In this document: positions 7,171 through 14,766 of the stretch, piece by piece
Layout: every line of letters starts with the position of its first letter
Numbering within the stretch: position 1 is the stretch's first letter
Source of the DNA: Candidatus Poribacteria bacterium
Lineage (GTDB): Bacteria; Poribacteria; WGA-4E; WGA-3G
Assembly: GCA_965214095.1 (NCBI GenBank)
Contig: OZ243938.1
Coordinates: 4,544,001-4,608,000 of the forward strand
Direction: 5' to 3'
Length of the DNA: 64,000 nt
Translations under genes and position numbers: made by a program
Notes under the pieces: generated by a model
The model's database searches: none
Told to the model about the DNA's origin: nothing
Seen by the model: the letters and a program-made list of their open reading frames with translations, nothing else

Positions 7171-8286
7171 ATGAAGCATCTGAATCTTCGCACGTATGCG
7201 ATGGTGATTGCACTCATCTCAATCTGGATCATCTTCACTCTCATTACAAATGGCACTTTCCTCACTACACGCAATCTCTCAATTCTATCACGACAAGCAA
7301 CAGTTACTGCTATTCTTGCAATAGGAATGGTATTAGTCATCATCTCAGCAAATATTGACCTTTCAGTCGGGTTCGGTTCAGGTCTACTTGGTGCTATCAC
7401 TGCAATATTACATGTTTGGTGGGAATTTCCAATAATCCTGACTCTCATTTTAGTAATTTTCATCGGCATACTAATCGGTGTATTGCATGGGTTTCTCATT
7501 GCATATCAACGAATCCCAGCATTTATTGTCACACTCGGTGGATTCCTGTTGTATCGTGGACTAATGTTGGCATTCACAAAAGGTGAAACTATTCTCCTTC
7601 CTGACAATTGGTTAAAGTCTATCGGAACCACCCACCTTCCGCCTACGATTGGATGGGGGATAATGCTCATCGGAATTGGTTTGAGCGTCTATGTGTTTTA
7701 TAGGCAACTCATTTCATCACAATTGCCTAAGACGTTCAAAGATCAGCTTCCAACGATGATGAAACTACTATCTACATTGGGATGTACTATAGTATTCGTC
7801 ATGGTAATGAATTCATACAAAGGAATTCCGCTTCCGGTATGTATTTTATTAGGTCTTGCATTCATATTTCATTTTATAGCAAACCGCACTCGGTTCGGTC
7901 GGTATGTTTATGCCATCGGAGGAAATGCTGAAGCTTCCTATTTGTCTGGATTAAACGTACGTCTTATAACTTTGCAAGTTTTTGCATTAATGGGGGCATT
8001 AATGGCAGTCGCTGGGGTTGTAATGACAACACGACTTGGGAGTGCAGGTCCAGGGGCAGGACGATTGCTTGAATTGGATGCAATCGCAGCATGTGTGATC
8101 GGCGGGGCAAGTTTGATGGGTGGACGCGGAACAATATTTGGGGCGATATTAGGTGCATTTGTCATGGCAAGCCTAAGTAATGGAATGAGTATGGCAAATA
8201 TGGGACCTGCATGGCAAGATATAATTAAAGGGATTGTCCTGGTAGCAGCTGTCGGATTTGACATGGCATCAAGAAAGAACAATTAA
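7171..8286 (+). CDS. Sugar ABC transporter permease (XylH/RbsC type)
   Basis: IDLSVG, IPAFIVTLG, TRFGRYVYAIGGN, ELDAIAACVIGG. Confidence 0.9.
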   Translation: MKHLNLRTYAMVIALISIWIIFTLITNGTFLTTRNLSILSRQATVTAILAIGMVLVIISANIDLSVGFGSGLLGAITAILHVWWEFPIILTLILVIFIGILIGVLHGFLIAYQRIPAFIVTLGGFLLYRGLMLAFTKGETILLPDNWLKSIGTTHLPPTIGWGIMLIGIGLSVYVFYRQLISSQLPKTFKDQLPTMMKLLSTLGCTIVFVMVMNSYKGIPLPVCILLGLAFIFHFIANRTRFGRYVYAIGGNAEASYLSGLNVRLITLQVFALMGALMAVAGVVMTTRLGSAGPGAGRLLELDAIAACVIGGASLMGGRGTIFGAILGAFVMASLSNGMSMANMGPAWQDIIKGIVLVAAVGFDMASRKNN

Positions 8287-8363
8287 CTTCTAACGTCATT
8301 TTTTTAAACCAATTTCAAATTCTTCACCCTCTTTAAAGCCAAATTCTAATTGGGAATCTATCT

Positions 8364-10121
8364 ATGAATCATAATTTTGACAATCCAAACAACTTTACTG
8401 ATGCAGAATTGGTGAGACTTGTCCAATGTCGAGACGAAGCTGCATTCACCGAATTAATATCTCGGTATAGTCCACGAATCTGGAACATTGTATTAGACAA
8501 ATCAAGACAAACACGCGACGCAGAAGAAATCCTCATGGATATCTGGTTGGCTGTTTGGAATAACATTATTGGACTCCGTAATGTAGAAAGTTTTGGGGTA
8601 TGGTTACGTAAAATTGCAAATAGTGCATGCAATAGATATTATGCTTCAAAAAAGAACAAACACTCCGAAATCATTATGAGTTACGAAGATTTAACCATAC
8701 AGATTGATAGAGAAGCAGAACGACGGTTTCACGATGCAAAGTTGCGTGCTGATGCAAGAGAAGCTGTACATCAACTGCCGAATAAAGTACGTTCTATTGC
8801 AGAAATGTACTATTTGGATTTATTCAGTATCAATGATATTTCTAAAGAATACAACCTACCAATTGGTACGGTAAAGTCAAAACTGAGCGAAGTCCGACAG
8901 CTACTACGAAAAGAATTTGAAATTGAACCTACAAAGGAGAACACAATGTCAACAAAACATGACAATCATAAAAATGGTGGAATTAAATGTAAGATAGTTG
9001 GTGTAGGTGGAGCAGGATGCAATGCTGTCAAACATCTCATCAAAAAAGAAGATACTGACATAATAGATTTTGGGGTGAATGATGAAATTGTCATAGATTT
9101 CTATGCAATTGATACAGACAGTGAGGCTTTAAATTCATGCAAAGAAGTCACTCAGATTCAAATTGGTGCAACCGTTACACAAGAACAAGGAACGGGAGGG
9201 AAGCTTGAACTTGGTAGAAGAGCAGCAGCCGAAAGCATGGATGAACTTCAATCCATTGTCTCCGATGCCGATATGCTTTTTATTATTGCTGGTATGGGTG
9301 GTGGAACGGGGACTGCAGTCGCACCTGTAATCACATCTTTAGCTCGTGTACATAAAACATTAACTGTCTGCATTGCAACCCGACCGCTTGACACTGAGGA
9401 AAAACACAAAAAAGAAAATGCTGATGAAGGATTGAGTGAACTCCAAGATGATCCAGATTCGTGTGCAGATGCTGTTATCGTTGTTCCAAACCAGCAAATC
9501 TTGGATTCACAAGAGCCAAAGTTACAGATGAGTGGATTATTCCAGCTAACAAATGATATCCTTTCCGATGGAGTAATGTTAATTTTGGACTTACTGTTAC
9601 AAACCGGGGAGATAAATATAGATTTTGATGACATACAAGAACTGTTCCGAGATAAGGGAACTATGCTAATAGGTATTGGGAAAGCAAAGGGTGAAAATCG
9701 AGCAACAATTGCTGCCAAAAACGCAATCAACTCGCTTCTCATTCAAGGAAACACTATTGAATCAAATGTCGATATGTTAATTAACATATATTCACCATAC
9801 GATTTCACAATGCATGAACTTGACCAAACGATGTGTGTCATTTGTGAAAAATATCGCGATGCACAACCCATGTTTGCATTAGTCTACAAGGATGAATTAG
9901 AAAAGAACGATGAAGTAATTGTTACGATATTATCAAGTTGTGCAGAAAAGCAAGAATCATCTCCCTCATCAATTCCTACAAGAGAAGAGGGTAAGACTCC
10001 CGAACAAGATCCAGAAACGTCATCATCTGATCCAGATTCTGTAGCTTCACAAAGTCGCGATTTCTTTAACACTCTTCCTGTCAAATCCCCATGCTTTAGT
10101 GCTTTAGCTTGCGGGATGTAG
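8364..10121 (+). CDS. ECF sigma-70 factor fused to an FtsZ-like GTPase; C-terminus altered by IS insertion
   Basis: aa 1-190: sigma2 (DEAAFTELISRY, DAEEI, SFGVWL) and sigma4 (LP...YY...SI.DI...LPIGTVKSKL). From aa ~205: GVGGAGCNAV, AIDTD, IAGMGGGTGT, VVPN, GEINIDFDDI, GKAKGENRA. Confidence 0.9.
   Translation: MNHNFDNPNNFTDAELVRLVQCRDEAAFTELISRYSPRIWNIVLDKSRQTRDAEEILMDIWLAVWNNIIGLRNVESFGVWLRKIANSACNRYYASKKNKHSEIIMSYEDLTIQIDREAERRFHDAKLRADAREAVHQLPNKVRSIAEMYYLDLFSINDISKEYNLPIGTVKSKLSEVRQLLRKEFEIEPTKENTMSTKHDNHKNGGIKCKIVGVGGAGCNAVKHLIKKEDTDIIDFGVNDEIVIDFYAIDTDSEALNSCKEVTQIQIGATVTQEQGTGGKLELGRRAAAESMDELQSIVSDADMLFIIAGMGGGTGTAVAPVITSLARVHKTLTVCIATRPLDTEEKHKKENADEGLSELQDDPDSCADAVIVVPNQQILDSQEPKLQMSGLFQLTNDILSDGVMLILDLLLQTGEINIDFDDIQELFRDKGTMLIGIGKAKGENRATIAAKNAINSLLIQGNTIESNVDMLINIYSPYDFTMHELDQTMCVICEKYRDAQPMFALVYKDELEKNDEVIVTILSSCAEKQESSPSSIPTREEGKTPEQDPETSSSDPDSVASQSRDFFNTLPVKSPCFSALACGM
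8934..8948 (+). promoter_or_regulatory. Internal RBS and in-frame ATG (Met195) at the sigma/FtsZ junction
   Basis: AAGGAG 8934-8939, 6-nt spacer, ATG 8946 in frame with 8364. Confidence 0.55.
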
Positions 10122-10134
10122 ACGGGCAAAAAGG

Positions 10135-10162
10135 TTGATTTTGAGAAAGAACACACTATAAT
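10135..10162 (+). promoter_or_regulatory. Putative sigma70 promoter for tnpB in the IS left end
   Basis: TTGATT-N16-TATAAT. Confidence 0.5.
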
Positions 10163-10248
10163 ACAAATACCTTTTCAGTGGTGGATGTCGTTAGCATCTG
10201 CCACACTACTAACGATGGGTAAGAGGTTCTTCACCGAGAAGGCGGACT

Positions 10249-11361
10249 ATGAGAAAAACCTATAAATACAAGGGACAACATCAAAAGAACACGCTAAAAC
10301 TTGGCAATCTGCTTGACGATATGCATCAGATCCATGTGCATATTATGCGATTGCAGAAGAGGTATTATCGCATATATAAGAAAAACATATCTGCCTATAC
10401 TATGAATCGTCATATTACGAAGTTGAAAAAGCGGACAAAGCCTCATTGGGCAGACTTGCCGAGTCAAGTTATTCAAGATGTTGTGCTGCGTATGGGTAAA
10501 GCCTACGACGCGTTTTTTAGGAATATAAAAGACCGCAAAGAAGGTAAAACAGCAAAGAAAATCGGTAGACCAAAGATTAAACCGCAACATAAATACAACT
10601 CTATGACGTTTACACAGGCAGGATATAAACTTGAAGGGAACCGTATCAAGATCAACTGTATAGATACGTGGTTTTCCTTTCATAAACATCGTGAAATAAC
10701 AGGTGACATCAAAACAATAACCCTCAAGCGTGACAGGTGTGGCGATTACTGGATATGCTTTTCTTGTGATAACGTTGACACACCGAAATCTTTTGCGAAG
10801 ACAGGTGAAAGTGCTGGCTTTGATTTCGGATTGACAACCTTTCTCACAGCTTCTAATGGTAATAAGATTGTGTCTCCGCAGTTTTTGAAAAAGTCCTTGA
10901 ACAAGTTGAGAACACTGAATAAAAGTGTGAGTCGTAAAGTCGAGGGATCAGGCAATTGGTATCGTGCTATCCGTGCGTTGTTGCGGGAGTATAGGAAGAT
11001 AGCGCGACAACGTCTTGACTGGCAGTGGAAACTTGCTACAGACCTTTGCAGGCATTTTGATACCTTGTGTTTTGAAACCCTCAATATAGACGGCATGAAA
11101 CGCCTCTGGGGACGCAAAGTCAGTGATCTCGCTTGCTACCAGTTCATTCAAGTGTTGGCATTCAAGTGTGCGAAACACGATAAAACTTTCCTCAAAATCG
11201 GACAATGGACAGCGACAACAAAACCCTGTAGCAACTGCGGACACACAAACGATAAACTAACACTTTCAGATAGACACTGGATATGTCCTACGTGCAATAC
11301 TGAACACGATAGAGACATCAATGCCGCTATCAATATCAAACAGGCAGGCTTAGCTGCCTAA
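10249..11361 (+). CDS. tnpB: RNA-guided endonuclease TnpB
   Basis: RuvC I GFDFG, RuvC II FETLN, zinc finger CSNC..CPTC, RuvC III HDRDINAA; catalytic D-E-D intact. Confidence 0.93.
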   Translation: MRKTYKYKGQHQKNTLKLGNLLDDMHQIHVHIMRLQKRYYRIYKKNISAYTMNRHITKLKKRTKPHWADLPSQVIQDVVLRMGKAYDAFFRNIKDRKEGKTAKKIGRPKIKPQHKYNSMTFTQAGYKLEGNRIKINCIDTWFSFHKHREITGDIKTITLKRDRCGDYWICFSCDNVDTPKSFAKTGESAGFDFGLTTFLTASNGNKIVSPQFLKKSLNKLRTLNKSVSRKVEGSGNWYRAIRALLREYRKIARQRLDWQWKLATDLCRHFDTLCFETLNIDGMKRLWGRKVSDLACYQFIQVLAFKCAKHDKTFLKIGQWTATTKPCSNCGHTNDKLTLSDRHWICPTCNTEHDRDINAAINIKQAGLAA

Positions 11362-11474
11362 AGTGGAGATGACGTGAGACGGGGGATCCTTTTGGAGAAA
11401 CGCTGTTGTCAAGGAAGCACAAGCCCCAACCTTTAGGTTGTGGGTCACTATGACCATATTGATTGATGACCAAC
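11342..11474 (+). ncRNA. TnpB omegaRNA 3' scaffold plus guide (5' end undetermined, probably inside tnpB)
   Basis: Hairpin AGGCAG-gcttag-CTGCCT whose loop can pair with downstream AAGC; right-end hairpin; flank CATATTGATTGATGACCAAC is the predicted guide. Confidence 0.65.
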
Positions 11475-11605
11475 AGATACCAGAATCTGTACAGTTAGCT
11501 ATTGATAACAGTTTATCTGTAAGTAATTCTTCCAGACTAAATCTCAGAGCGCCACCATACTATCTGTTGACAGAACTTCCAACTCCGGTTTTATGTTTTC
11601 TATAG
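11455..11605 (+). pseudogene. Detached native C-terminal tail of the sigma-FtsZ gene
   Basis: Joining 10069 to 11455 reads DFFN-ILIDDQQIPESVQLAIDNSLSVSNSSRLNLRAPPYYLLTELPTPVLCFL*; the other two frames stop within 4 codons. Confidence 0.6.
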
Positions 11606-12782: not shown

Positions 12783-13367
12783 ATGAATCCAGACGAATTG
12801 AAAGATGCTGAGGATGCGGAACTCATCGTGGCGGTATTGGCTGGTAATCACAAAGCGTTTGATGAATTAGTGTACCGGTATCAACGCGGTATGCTTTCCG
12901 TAGCACAACAGGTTGTCCGAAACCCAATTGAAGCGGAAGACATTGTCCAAGATGCATTCTTACTTGCATTTGAGGCATTACCGCAACTTGATAATCTAAA
13001 TAGATTTGGTTCTTGGCTCTATTCAATTACACGTAATCGCGCACTACGTTTCATGAAACGATCAAGTAGAATACAATTGCATGACGATGTAGATACAGAA
13101 TTGCAAATAGAGGCAGATCCTGCTTCAACAGATCCTGCACAAATAGTGGAACAGGAATCTACCCATGAAGATGTCAGGGAAGCGATTGATTCACTACCTT
13201 CAGATTTTAAGGAGGTAATCACGCTCTATTATTGGGCAGATATGCCGCAGAAACGGATTGCCGAAACACTTTCGCTCCCCTTAACAACGGTAAAATGGAG
13301 ACTTCATAAAGGGAAAGACTTACTAAAAACCGTATTAGAAAAACGTGGATATGGAGATATTTTGTAG
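12783..13367 (+). CDS. ECF RNA polymerase sigma factor
   Basis: AFDELVYRY, EAEDIVQDAF, FGSWL..ITRN, TTVKWRLH. Confidence 0.93.
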   Translation: MNPDELKDAEDAELIVAVLAGNHKAFDELVYRYQRGMLSVAQQVVRNPIEAEDIVQDAFLLAFEALPQLDNLNRFGSWLYSITRNRALRFMKRSSRIQLHDDVDTELQIEADPASTDPAQIVEQESTHEDVREAIDSLPSDFKEVITLYYWADMPQKRIAETLSLPLTTVKWRLHKGKDLLKTVLEKRGYGDIL

Positions 13368-13368
13368 C

Positions 13369-14766
13369 ATGGAACAGGAACGACAACAAGAAATACGTGG
13401 ACTTTTTCAAATTCTTGAGCAGACAGCAGAGATCGCAGAAAATTCAGCATTGACAGAGAACTATAAGGATGGAGAAAGGCGATGCGTCTCTCAATTCAAT
13501 AAGGTCTTGAAACGACTGAGTGCGTTAGATGCTGTCCCAGATGCGCTCTTTGAACCATTACATGAAGATGCTAATTATAGTGAAATTAGTATTGCTTGTA
13601 ATCATCTTGCAGCGTATCTAAGCGAGGGATTAGGATCATTTCCCGATCTAAAAGGCATGGTGACCAACATTCTTGGGAAAAGATTCATTGAGAACATTGA
13701 GGAAGAGTTGAAAGAAGGTAAAATTGGTGATTTGATACGGAACGCGATTCCTGAATTTATGACTGAGACTACTCTGGATGACATCAATGAATCGTTCAAT
13801 GTGAGTCCGGATGGTAGGTTGATACTTGATGTAGACATTGGAACGATTGACATTCGGACAGCAGAAAGCGAGGCAGTTAATGTTGTCGTGCACCGGGCAG
13901 CAAAGTTCAAGACAGATAGGCATGCAACGGATTTACTTAAGGATTTCCAAGTCAACATTAATCCAAAAGAAGGTGAACTTCAAATTGATGCGAAATTTAA
14001 AGATGGTAAACGGTATTGGAAAAAAAACACAGAACGACTGAATATCCATTTTGATATTACAGTTCCCAAAACTTTCCACGGTGTATATTTAAAAACAGCG
14101 GCGGGTGATATTACTGTTCATGATTTTAGTGGTGCAGTCCAATCGCAAACAAACAGTGGGGAACTGAAGTTTGAGAATATCACAGGTCCAATTTTTGGCA
14201 ATACGGTCAATGGTGATGTCAGGTTGGCTCAATGTGAAAGTGATGTTAGGATTGAAGCATTACGAGGAGACATTGAGATAAATAACAACATCGGAAGTGT
14301 TGACGCGACTACATCTGGTGGAAGTATACGTTGTGTAGATGTTGATGGTGAAATCATCGGAGAAACATCTGGTGGTAGTATCAAGTTGGTCCGATGTAAG
14401 GGGGAGGCAAAGGTTCAGACTTCAGGCGGAAGTATCGACCTGGACAATGATGGTTCGATCACTGCCAAAACCTTTGGTGGTTCTATTAACGCAGGTATAT
14501 CGGGACAACTCAAAGGCGATTCAACTATAGAAGTCTCAGGTGGAGACATCACAGTTTCATTGCCTTCTGATATTGCATTAAAGGTTGATGCAAAATGTAG
14601 TGGTGGAGCGGTAGTATCTGAACTGCCGGATGTTATCGTCGCTGATGATGAACATATATCTGGACAACTGTATGGGGTTGTTAATGGTGATGGTCCTTTA
14701 CTGAAACTCCGTTGCATTGGTGGAGATATAAATTTGAAAAGTAAGCATGTTGATAGTGAAACATAA
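13369..14766 (+). CDS. DUF4097 beta-strand repeat protein with extra N-terminal helical domain
   Basis: Repeated T-S-G-G-x-I units, NGDGPLLKLR..GGDI C-terminus; start 1 nt after the sigma stop. Confidence 0.8.
   Translation: MEQERQQEIRGLFQILEQTAEIAENSALTENYKDGERRCVSQFNKVLKRLSALDAVPDALFEPLHEDANYSEISIACNHLAAYLSEGLGSFPDLKGMVTNILGKRFIENIEEELKEGKIGDLIRNAIPEFMTETTLDDINESFNVSPDGRLILDVDIGTIDIRTAESEAVNVVVHRAAKFKTDRHATDLLKDFQVNINPKEGELQIDAKFKDGKRYWKKNTERLNIHFDITVPKTFHGVYLKTAAGDITVHDFSGAVQSQTNSGELKFENITGPIFGNTVNGDVRLAQCESDVRIEALRGDIEINNNIGSVDATTSGGSIRCVDVDGEIIGETSGGSIKLVRCKGEAKVQTSGGSIDLDNDGSITAKTFGGSINAGISGQLKGDSTIEVSGGDITVSLPSDIALKVDAKCSGGAVVSELPDVIVADDEHISGQLYGVVNGDGPLLKLRCIGGDINLKSKHVDSET

Follow-up and report, generated by a model that had tools for sequence, protein, structure and literature searches.

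Why should a sigma factor be continuous, in one reading frame, with a protein of the cell division machinery? This question is raised by a gene in a 64,000-nucleotide stretch of the genome of a Candidatus Poribacteria bacterium (assembly GCA_965214095.1, contig OZ243938.1, positions 4,544,001 to 4,608,000 of the forward strand), which we refer to as the window. The gene is a single open reading frame (ORF) from ATG to TAG in which the domains of an extracytoplasmic function (ECF) sigma factor are followed by those of FtsZ. By its domain composition it encodes a bona fide ECF-type sigma factor that carries a diverged FtsZ duplicate as its C-terminal extension. The ORF and its parts are the following.

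8364..10121, plus strand: sigma-FtsZ fusion ORF in its present form, 585 amino acids (P0001).
8454..8654, plus strand: ECF sigma region 2, amino acids 31–97 (Pfam Sigma70_r2, E 5.7e-7; similar to SigW; low ratio of nonsynonymous to synonymous substitution rates, dN/dS).
8754..8912, plus strand: ECF sigma region 4, amino acids 131–183 (Pfam Sigma70_r4_2 and r4; NCBIfam TIGR02937).
8988..9506, plus strand: FtsZ/tubulin GTPase domain, amino acids 209–381 (Pfam Tubulin, E 4.4e-38; T1 loop GGAGCN, T4 loop GGGTGT, T5 residue N376).
About 9615–9632, plus strand: T7 loop with N418, D420 and D423, just 5' of the FtsZ_C domain.
9657..9929, plus strand: FtsZ C-terminal domain, amino acids 432–522 (Pfam FtsZ_C, E 1.4e-9; structure matches).
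9930..10069, plus strand: disordered linker rich in Ser, Pro and Glu, and the start of the native tail (...SRDFFN), delimited by the predicted local distance difference test (pLDDT) of an AlphaFold (AF2) model and by alignment.

The sigma part comprises regions 2 and 4 only. No other Pfam domain precedes amino acid 195, and regions 1.1 and 3 are absent, as is typical by domain criteria for the ECF sigma factors (group 4). The Pfam match to Sigma70_r4_2 (amino acids 131–180) reaches 25.1 bits, slightly below the cut-off of 25.7, and the ECF model TIGR02937 is matched with 62.1 bits against a cut-off of 42.9. The sigma part resembles the structures of SigW, SigH and RpoE (E 1e-12 to 1e-8; the SigW structure 5wuq in the PDB matches amino acids 17–185 with E 4.5e-12), and the FtsZ part those of staphylococcal and Bacillus FtsZ (E 1e-56 to 1e-54). 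An AF2 model based on an alignment of 45 relatives (mean pLDDT 72) predicts that sigma2, sigma4 and the FtsZ core are all folded, with a pLDDT of about 80–88 for the two sigma domains and low confidence for amino acids 95–107, 188–205 and 528–585 (below 50 for the last of these). The predicted FtsZ core superposes on solved FtsZ structures with a target TM-score of 0.86–0.92. When sigma (amino acids 1–190) and FtsZ (195–527) were predicted as a complex, with a 45-row alignment each, the median score was 0.25, with the mark set at 0.32, which speaks neither for nor against a contact. With 390 amino acids the extension lies beyond the 50 amino acids that define an ECF sigma factor with a regulatory extension. 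The earlier note on this DNA had described one uninterrupted ORF of sigma2, sigma4 and FtsZ, with which the 585-residue frame and the Pfam domain order agree, and the motifs that it quoted are all present in P0001 (GVGGAGCNAV, GMGGGTGTAVAP, AIDTDSEAL, QGTGGKLELG, TRPLDTEEKHK and EINIDFDDI). Its caution that reads over 8900–9000 might expose an assembly error has been answered by contigs that cross the junction between the two parts without gaps.

One of these, a 5807-nucleotide contig of run X1, which may be the source sample of the window genome, spans 8000–10149 with one letter different. A contig from another study (X5) extends over the gene with about 95% identity, and contigs from the RNA libraries X19 (8000–8885 and 8859–9556) and X23 (8738–9513) include parts of it at about 92%; the junction at 8946 is crossed without a gap in these as well, and in total by independent contigs of four runs from three studies. 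The RNA-library contigs point weakly to transcription, since DNA carry-over is possible, and they carry no information on level, strand or 5' end. The X19 contig is one base short at 8648, inside sigma, owing either to an error in the contig or to a frameshift in that strain.

The fusion is widespread within one family. A search with the whole protein gave full-length, in-frame, stop-free matches (query about 1–550) in about 83 of 176 Poribacteria genomes, a count made by hand from the match table. All 83 belong to the same family of 112 genomes, with 33 of 40 genomes of the window's genus, 48 of 65 of another one and the single genomes of two more genera; in the 64 genomes of the other ten Poribacteria families the fusion was found in none, and only ordinary FtsZ is present there. 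The earlier note had counted a stop codon between the domains of relatives against its reading. There is none in the approximately 83 genomes, and the only exception to the intact frame is G108, a single-contig genome (L186, G108:C1:4937500-4943000) in which a frameshift within sigma4, be it a genuine split or a homopolymer error, does not affect the FtsZ frame. In a protein search, more than 100 fused homologs were found, down to 43% identity, and the few with a named source were 'Candidatus Poribacteria bacterium' proteins. They are labelled 'cell division protein FtsZ', 'hypothetical protein' or 'RNA polymerase sigma factor', showing that such fusions get mis-annotated. A search of genome contigs returned two poribacterial fusions among its best 80 loci, the rest being ordinary FtsZ, and among the named clusters of a protein-cluster atlas there were only plain ECF clusters (score 0.79) and no large cluster combining sigma and tubulin, a hint that does not establish absence.

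Where does the FtsZ part come from? Besides the fusion, the genome has two canonical ftsZ genes (L001 and L002; TIGR00065 391.2 and 384.3 bits), one of which adjoins ftsA and ends in ...WDIPSFLRVQQ. The second ends in an acidic tail and not in a peptide of the DIPSFLR type. The fusion itself lies outside the division and cell wall (dcw) cluster, with genes for a short-chain dehydrogenase/reductase (SDR), TatD and an ABC permease upstream and an insertion sequence (IS) and a ComF-like gene downstream, in agreement with the earlier proposal that its FtsZ is a paralog. The tree against canonical ftsZ that had been suggested places all 38 sigma-fused FtsZ domains in one clade (SH-aLRT 96; 54 rows, L032 left out), nested within the FtsZ of their own family (98), above the other families. 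The fusion therefore arose once, from the lineage's own ftsZ. The window copy is 48% identical to the own canonical FtsZ, and for the fused copies of two other genomes this identity is 60%. The genome also contains a broken FtsZ N-domain gene (L004/L005, C1:1883562-1884040, minus strand) in two frames with TGA stops; its end resembles a class of sigma fusions of about 404 amino acids with the FtsZ N-domain, described below, and there is no sigma part upstream of it.

Residues were compared across 63 fused and 16 canonical rows (with reference to E. coli FtsZ numbering). The T1, T4 (GGGTGT) and T5 loops are kept across the fused rows, and the GTPase signature of the window copy reads GGGTGTA. 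The T7 aspartate D423 is invariant in 45 of 45 aligned sequences and, in the 63-row set, is kept with a single exception wherever a fused row includes the C-domain. The window copy retains N418, D420 and D423 and all GTP loops. From this conservation GTP binding, GTPase activity and polymerisation of the FtsZ part are predicted. The fused copy and its relatives have no FtsA-binding tail, that is, no C-terminal peptide of the DIPxFLR type; they end in a relic of DnaE or in DnaE itself.

Both the sigma and the FtsZ parts are, by their substitution patterns, under purifying selection. The dN/dS values were determined by the NG86 method for nine pairs within the window's clade. For sigma they were 0.09–0.15 in eight of the nine pairs, and the closest pair gave 0.65 on a synonymous divergence (dS) of only 0.017, which is uninformative. 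The FtsZ N-domain gave 0.22–0.34, the FtsZ C-domain 0.22–0.46, the tail 0.17–0.72 and the 19-codon linker at the junction 0.3–2.1. A singleton with dN/dS near 1, which the earlier note had named as the outcome that would count against a functional fusion, is thus excluded by the number of genomes and by the values for sigma and FtsZ. Compared with its nearest relative (L087), the window gene has a dS of 0.017 in sigma and of 0.27–0.34 in FtsZ, so that the gene is a mosaic generated by recombination or gene conversion. The stretch from H7 to T7 of the window copy is closer to a more distant relative (P0011) than to the closest one (P0002).

Several properties of the gene go beyond the earlier note: a truncation by an IS, a continuation into DNA polymerase III (Pol III) alpha in relatives, an internal ribosome-binding site (RBS) with a start codon, a shared promoter motif, and sister fusions with other extensions. 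The ORF had been given as 8364–10121; the single frame stands, and the annotated 3' end does not. It is not the native end of the gene, because the last 16 codons (TLPVKSPCFSALACGM) and the stop are supplied by the left end of an IS.

10070..11454, plus strand: IS200/IS605-family element of 1385 bp, defined by empty-site contigs, its ends ambiguous by 2 nucleotides.
10249..11361, plus strand: TnpB ORF, 370 amino acids (Pfam OrfB_IS605 and Cas12f1-like_TNB).
11455..11605, plus strand: displaced native 3' end of the fusion gene, (N)ILIDDQQIPESVQLAIDNSLS... followed by a stop; a relic of the Pol III alpha (PHP) N-terminus.

The empty site is found in relatives: the X5 contig joins 10069 to 11455, and the RNA-library contig X23 joins 10068 to 11455. 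Together with the TnpB domains and with three copies of at least 1200 nucleotides in the genome (100, 93 and 91% identity), this assigns the insert to the IS200/IS605 family. For a TnpB-only element of this family it has nothing unusual, and it matters here only as a truncation of the gene. The window allele is a derived, IS-truncated member of its family. Read depth over the IS was 5 to 50 times that of the flanks in four runs, and the element is therefore abundant in these communities.

The displaced end points to what the gene looked like before. In about 58 of the 83 fusion genomes the open frame runs on to 1220–1740 amino acids, with length classes of about 1360 and 1435 among these triple fusions. 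The syntenic locus of genome G078, with the same SDR, TatD and ABC permease genes upstream, has a 1435-residue ORF (P0121; L116:4097-8401) in which FtsZ_C is followed by PHP, DNA_pol3_alpha, a finger domain and HHH_6, and which stops before the OB fold. The fused polymerase part matches the Pol III alpha model NF004226 with 1033 bits (cut-off 1002); by the full definition P0121 is not a complete Pol III alpha, as the C-terminal OB and tau-binding part is absent. Of the 21 complete triple-fusion ORFs, all have the PHP motif; of the two catalytic palm motifs, PDIDIDF with its aspartates is kept in 20 and KFDxLG in 19. In a tree of DnaE (L198 left out), nine fused polymerase parts form one clade (96) within the family's own dnaE radiation; the polymerase part is therefore a duplicate of a housekeeping gene, too.

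In the FtsZ tree, the window's clade and its sister group form 11 rows (support 98) that lie inside the triple fusions, and the clade has thus lost the polymerase secondarily. Only a relic of about 30 amino acids is left: relatives in the window's clade end in ...FFNILINDQQIPESVQLAIDNSVSAVIHSD, which aligns with the polymerase N-terminus FVHLHNHSEYSMLDGACRIPDMV.WAI.NS.PAVALTD (alignment columns 600–640). Independent truncations occurred in other genomes (L102, L123, L125 and L127).

The genome also has a second, free-standing dnaE (L120:4814-8095; C1:3358813-3362091) that encodes 1093 amino acids including an OB fold and is 60% identical to the canonical one. It is also found in G093, has a long branch, and is directly followed by a pair of genes resembling IS607/TnpB. 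The idea that it is the detached partner of the fusion found no support: the fused DnaE of G078 is 69% identical to the canonical DnaE of the window's genome and 61% to L120; in the DnaE tree L120 is a separate long branch without a resolved placement. The second and the fused DnaE were rejected as error-prone DnaE2 (NF004225: 583 and 589 bits with a cut-off of 939; NF004226 above its cut-off).

The junction between sigma and FtsZ contains a conserved signal.

8934..8948, plus strand: internal Shine-Dalgarno (SD) sequence AAGGAG (8934–8939) and the ATG codon of Met195 (8946–8948).

We compared 63 locus records, representing 60 distinct genes (L119 equals L087, L116 equals L094 and L117 equals L092). 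Seven of the 72 loci gave no fused ORF by the regular expression (L097, L103, L104, L106, L112, L145 and L154), and L095 and L105, without a match to the T1 expression, were left out of the junction statistics. The junction methionine is located exactly 18 amino acids ahead of the T1 loop in all 63 records, which is the position of FtsZ's own start, and its codon is ATG in 62 and GTG in one. A purine tract of the AAGGAG, AGGAGG or AGAGGGG type lies 6–9 bases ahead, and the residues that it encodes vary (KEN, KED, EED, RSK, RGK, RRG, KGE, KRG, ERG and others). With the 3' end of the organism's 16S rRNA (...GGATCACCTCCTTTCT), the anti-SD duplex energy is -9.2 kcal/mol at the window junction and -9.6 kcal/mol in the median of all junctions, compared with a median of -2.7 kcal/mol for all codon positions of the same ORFs and of -1.8 kcal/mol (5th percentile -6.5) for other internal methionines. 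By this measure 62 of the 63 junctions are within the top 5% of their own ORF, and in 55 no other internal methionine equals the junction. In the window's genome an energy of -9 or lower is found at 17% of crudely called gene starts and at 2% of internal methionines. These counts are inflated by kinship, and purines are to be expected in a charged linker. Nevertheless, the constant distance and the restriction of the codon to ATG or GTG argue for a retained RBS. SD and ATG are also kept at the junctions of sister fusions in which the same sigma precedes WD40 repeats or DnaN (for example TAAGGAGG-N8-ATG before the first DnaN residue). The mRNA should therefore yield both the sigma-FtsZ protein and a free FtsZ-like protein, and a sigma-less product is probably also made from Met195.

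A second signal precedes the gene.

8303..8335, plus strand: bipartite promoter-like motif TTTAAACC-N18-CTCTTTA, ending 28 nucleotides before the start codon.

With an AAC-containing putative -35 element and CTCTTTA as putative -10 element, the motif resembles ECF promoters, and we infer that it is one. The form TTTTTTAAACC-N18-CTC(T/A)TTA, with the same spacing, is present upstream of every fusion gene, at different loci and in different classes. The strict pattern, TTTAAACC-N18-CTCWTTA, has one site in the window's genome and none in the reversed-sequence control; it is present in 95 of the 112 genomes of the family, with 228 hits versus 6 in the control. Among the genera that carry the fusion it was found in 31 of 39, 62 of 65 and 1 of 1 genomes; the fourth has 0 of 1, since CTCTTTT stands in its copy. 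Where the fusion is absent, the pattern was found in 0 of 3 (genus g2) and 0 of 2 (genus g4) genomes. The motif is located 30–120 nucleotides ahead of start codons, with one to six sites per genome. Looser patterns were tried for the regulon of the window's genome and discarded as being at chance level (3 hits versus 2 in the control, and 15 versus 20).

Twenty further motif sites were inspected, with Pfam run on L169, L173, L174 and L184. Downstream of them are the following genes.

7 of 20 sites: ORFs of about 855 amino acids with the same sigma and WD40 repeats.
2 of 20 sites: sigma-FtsZ-N-like genes of about 403 amino acids.
1 of 20 sites: sigma with a complete beta clamp (P0123; DNA_pol3_beta, DNA_pol3_beta_2 and DNA_pol3_beta_3).
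4 of 20 sites: ABC permeases of the MacB_PCD/FtsX type.
1 of 20 sites: a WD40 protein.
1 of 20 sites: a different ECF sigma factor with a long extension.
4 of 20 sites: unclear or empty.

The motif thus leads to a family of sigma genes with exchanged extensions. The sigma-DnaN fusion with the complete clamp lies at L184:1865-3604 on the minus strand in G135. In a scan of the family, this type 1 had close full-length matches in nine genomes, of which five contain one stop; no stop lies at the junctions of L203, L204 and L205, although two of these loci belong to the five. A second type (43–47% identity, frames of about 580 amino acids) is stop-free in at least 24 genomes and often lies a few kilobases from a sigma-FtsZ-N gene of 404 amino acids. 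Counted together, the two types are present in more than 30 genomes, which also hold several stand-alone dnaN paralogs. The window's own genome has two sigma-WD40 paralogs in tandem (C1:885941-891121, minus strand; sigma identity 54% and 50%), recognised as WD40 proteins by eye and by their similarity to L169. Upstream of the first lies TTTAAACC-N18-CTCTATA; in the second the junction methionine is retained, with GAGGAG ahead of it.

In a tree with five other ECF sigma factors of the same genome, taken from about 40 such hits, the sigma domains of this family form one tight clade (support 96, stem 0.9), within which the order of the WD40, FtsZ and FtsZ-N classes is an unresolved polytomy. On the present genomes this sigma family is confined to one family of Poribacteria. 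Its members have in common a sigma and an in-frame copy of a protein that, by its family, associates with itself (FtsZ with Pol III alpha, the FtsZ GTPase domain, DnaN or WD40). The shared motif before all of them implies positive autoregulation and a small regulon. In relatives the motif precedes genes for MacB_PCD/FtsX-type permeases at L166, L167, L174 and L176, and these permeases are possible members of the regulon.

No anti-sigma gene adjoins the fusion in the window or in the syntenic locus of G078, the two loci inspected in detail. Elsewhere in the window a separate ECF sigma gene (12783..13367) overlaps a gene for a DUF4097 'toastrack' protein (13345..14766); these probably form a sigma/anti-sigma-like pair of their own, unrelated to the fusion. 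The genome assembly further contains a contig (C2) of 32,066 bp with a G+C content of 64%, compared with 41% in the main contig, which may be foreign or mis-binned.

What could such a protein do? The reading we prefer, to which we give slightly less than even chances, is that of an autoregulated ECF sigma factor that has no anti-sigma factor and is instead gated through the assembly of its fused FtsZ copy. The FtsZ-like module would bind GTP and assemble head to tail with the free copy started at Met195, and possibly with the FtsZ of the division machinery. The state of assembly would decide whether the tethered sigma gains access to the RNA polymerase core at its cognate promoters, and a small transcription programme would thereby be coupled to GTP or division status. 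The earlier note had proposed a one-component regulator under the control of GTP or polymerisation, which is plausible. Sigma would drive its own promoter (TTTAAACC-N18-CTCWTTA) and a small regulon, and the RBS and start of the captured gene would yield the extension from one mRNA in two forms, tethered to sigma and free. Sigma activity, autoregulation, dual translation, GTP binding, assembly and the gating of sigma by assembly are each predictions from the features described above.

A number of observations weigh against this reading. In sister genes this sigma carries WD40 or DnaN, and regulation cannot depend on FtsZ polymerisation as such for that reason; since the sister fusions carry WD40, the FtsZ N-domain and DnaN, a purely FtsZ-specific mechanism is less likely than a general tie between sigma and a subunit of a cellular machine. 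The FtsZ part has two to four times the dN/dS of sigma, and its match to the ftsZ equivalog model TIGR00065 (amino acids 194–539) stays at 255.7 bits, under the cut-off of 295.2. The T3 loop, whose G-A-G is the gamma-phosphate sensor of canonical FtsZ, is altered in every group of the long class (G-T-G-G in the window, S-T-D-G or G-A-D-A elsewhere). In the window's clade, which has the longest FtsZ branches (stem 0.31), D420 of the T7 loop is replaced by G, H or S in five of seven rows; GTPase-driven dynamics may be relaxed there because of these replacements and the long branch. The arrangement of the domains in the AF2 model has a pTM of 0.54, with the linker 188–205 disordered, and the IS has removed the last approximately 30 native residues of the window allele. 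Should most translation begin at the internal start, little of the fused form might be made. Finally, a relaxed pattern found only two motif sites in the window's genome, both before genes of the sigma family, so that the output is perhaps little more than self-expression.

It might also be possible that sigma serves as an address tag rather than as a switch, docking an FtsZ-like filament, or Pol III alpha or the clamp, on RNA polymerase or on promoter-like DNA. In that case the protein would arrange or move DNA, or fix the site of DNA synthesis, and would not switch genes. We consider this unlikely. The choice of extensions would suit it, since they copy subunits of the replisome and divisome (FtsZ, DnaE and DnaN) with their catalytic residues kept, and the FtsZ copy lacks the membrane-anchor (FtsA-binding) tail and is hence not built for the Z-ring. 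One to six motif sites per genome are more in keeping with a few addressed loci than with a broad regulon, and in phage T4 a sliding clamp activates a sigma-like factor (PMC7892883, PMC2988020). However, the polymerase has been lost repeatedly with sigma-FtsZ left intact (in the 11-row clade and in L102, L123, L125 and L127), the motif is located at the normal promoter position, 30–120 nucleotides before starts, as transcription predicts, and the WD40 sister fusions have no link to DNA or replication.

Sigma and FtsZ copy could, on the other hand, be independent proteins of an operon that has lost its stop, the covalent link being tolerated and not used, and translation of the FtsZ copy starting for the most part at the conserved RBS and ATG of its own. 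The SD and start of the captured gene are retained in every class (FtsZ, WD40 and DnaN), the linker at the junction evolves neutrally with a dN/dS of 0.3–2.1, the G108 frameshift in sigma4 spares the FtsZ frame, and five of the nine type 1 sigma-DnaN matches have one stop somewhere; all of this would be expected of such a relic. We nevertheless think it improbable: neutral read-through should often regain stops, and the link is stop-free in about 83 genomes and in at least four independently built types of extension. The sigma-FtsZ-N class of about 404 amino acids keeps the link yet drops the half of FtsZ that is needed for polymer contacts, and there is no anti-sigma gene (window and G078) to regulate sigma otherwise.

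A wider interpretation of the gated sigma, speculative and with a low probability in our estimation, takes the whole family as 'machine-tethered' sigma factors. The extensions would be mimics that join or shadow the divisome or replisome, and private promoters (TTTAAACC-N18-CTCWTTA) would be read according to the state of the machine; alternatively, the mimics would serve as decoys and signal when these machines are attacked, for instance by inhibitors of phage origin. Free copies, made from the internal start, would then set the ratio of tagged to untagged subunits, and the family would be the cellular, covalent counterpart of the clamp-activated gp55 of T4.

Still less probable is that the FtsZ half is losing its function in this genome or clade, leaving an ECF sigma factor with an inert appendage. 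Several observations would suit this: the native tail was removed by the IS, the window's clade has the longest FtsZ branches (stem 0.31) with D420 replaced in five of seven rows, the FtsZ dN/dS between the window and its nearest relative is 0.31–0.41 in a mosaic with a dS of 0.017 versus 0.27–0.34, and the broken FtsZ-N paralog L004/L005 shows that members of the family do decay in this genome. Nevertheless, the frame is open over 1.7 kb, both FtsZ halves have a dN/dS well below 1 in nine of nine pairs, the window copy retains N418, D420, D423 and all GTP loops, the internal SD and ATG are intact, and the RNA-library contigs contain uninterrupted alleles of near relatives. An artefact of assembly or gene calling that wrongly joined two adjacent genes can practically be dismissed, with the junction crossed gap-free by contigs of four runs from three studies and the same frame present in about 83 genomes, many of them single contigs.

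If the link is functional, a gated sigma of this kind would be a direct and genetically simple wire from the cell-cycle machinery to transcription, in an uncultured, sponge-associated phylum. It opens questions that can be addressed in vitro, namely whether FtsZ assembly can gate a transcription factor and why extra copies of FtsZ, DnaE and DnaN are kept, and the fusion sigma and its motif are a candidate orthogonal sigma/promoter pair.

ECF sigma factors to which a sensor domain is fused are the 'one-component systems' among sigma factors, and to our knowledge every described ECF extension is a small binding domain. Two ECF surveys describe a SnoaL-like extension in ECF41, TPR in ECF42, a WD40-like one in ECF57 and a Cys-rich one in ECF238, and those of ECF41, ECF42 and ECF57 have been proposed to be regulatory (PMC8999054, PMC7826278). 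The fusion shares with such factors the minimal sigma2-sigma4 core, the long C-terminal extension, the lack of a neighbouring anti-sigma gene and a likely autoregulated promoter, and the extension of ECF57 resembles that of the WD40 sister genes (PMC8999054). It differs in that the known extensions are small ligand- or protein-binding domains, whereas here the extension is a complete FtsZ, in relatives with Pol III alpha, or DnaN, and in that an internal RBS and start are predicted to give a free copy of it. The earlier note had stated that it knew of no FtsZ extension of an ECF sigma factor, and the ECF literature searched holds none. Full-text searches found no account of a sigma-FtsZ fusion; FtsZ, tubulin, WD40 and Poribacteria occur zero times in the main text of the ECF re-classification, the supplements of which may list rarer extensions (PMC7826278), and FtsZ, tubulin and GTP zero times in a review from 2022 (PMC8999054). 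An ECF sigma factor with a fused extension is thus of a known kind, and for the FtsZ type of extension no precedent was found.

Compared with canonical FtsZ, the fused copy has the same Tubulin and FtsZ_C domains, the GGGTGT signature, the NxDxxD of the T7 loop and the fold (TM-score 0.86–0.92). Unlike canonical FtsZ, it is encoded outside the dcw cluster and scores below the TIGR00065 cut-off; its C-terminal peptide is missing, its T3 loop is altered, and it is preceded by sigma at the N-terminus.

A connection between FtsZ and a sigma factor is known from B. subtilis, in which SpoIIE ties the activity of sigma-F to the FtsZ division machinery (PMC10990147). That link is indirect, since SpoIIE is an FtsZ-binding membrane phosphatase that acts on an anti-anti-sigma factor, whereas here sigma is covalently joined to an FtsZ paralog. 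In late transcription of phage T4, the sigma-like gp55, the co-activator gp33 and the sliding clamp gp45 make transcription follow replication, by physical coupling of a promoter-specificity factor to a replisome subunit (PMC7892883, PMC2988020). The sigma-DnaN sister fusions resemble a covalent version of this link between clamp and gp55. The T4 system is viral, non-covalent and made of three proteins, and the window gene carries FtsZ and not a clamp.

In plasmids and phages, TubZ/TubR and PhuZ combine a GTPase of the tubulin/FtsZ family with a separate helix-turn-helix (HTH) DNA-binding partner. Plasmid segregation by TubR-TubZ and the clamp-gp55 pair of T4 are loose analogues of a sigma that acts as an address tag. 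TubZ and PhuZ are distant GTPases of mobile elements; in the Poribacteria fusion the GTPase is a recent duplicate of the chromosomal FtsZ, and the HTH is part of a complete sigma factor.

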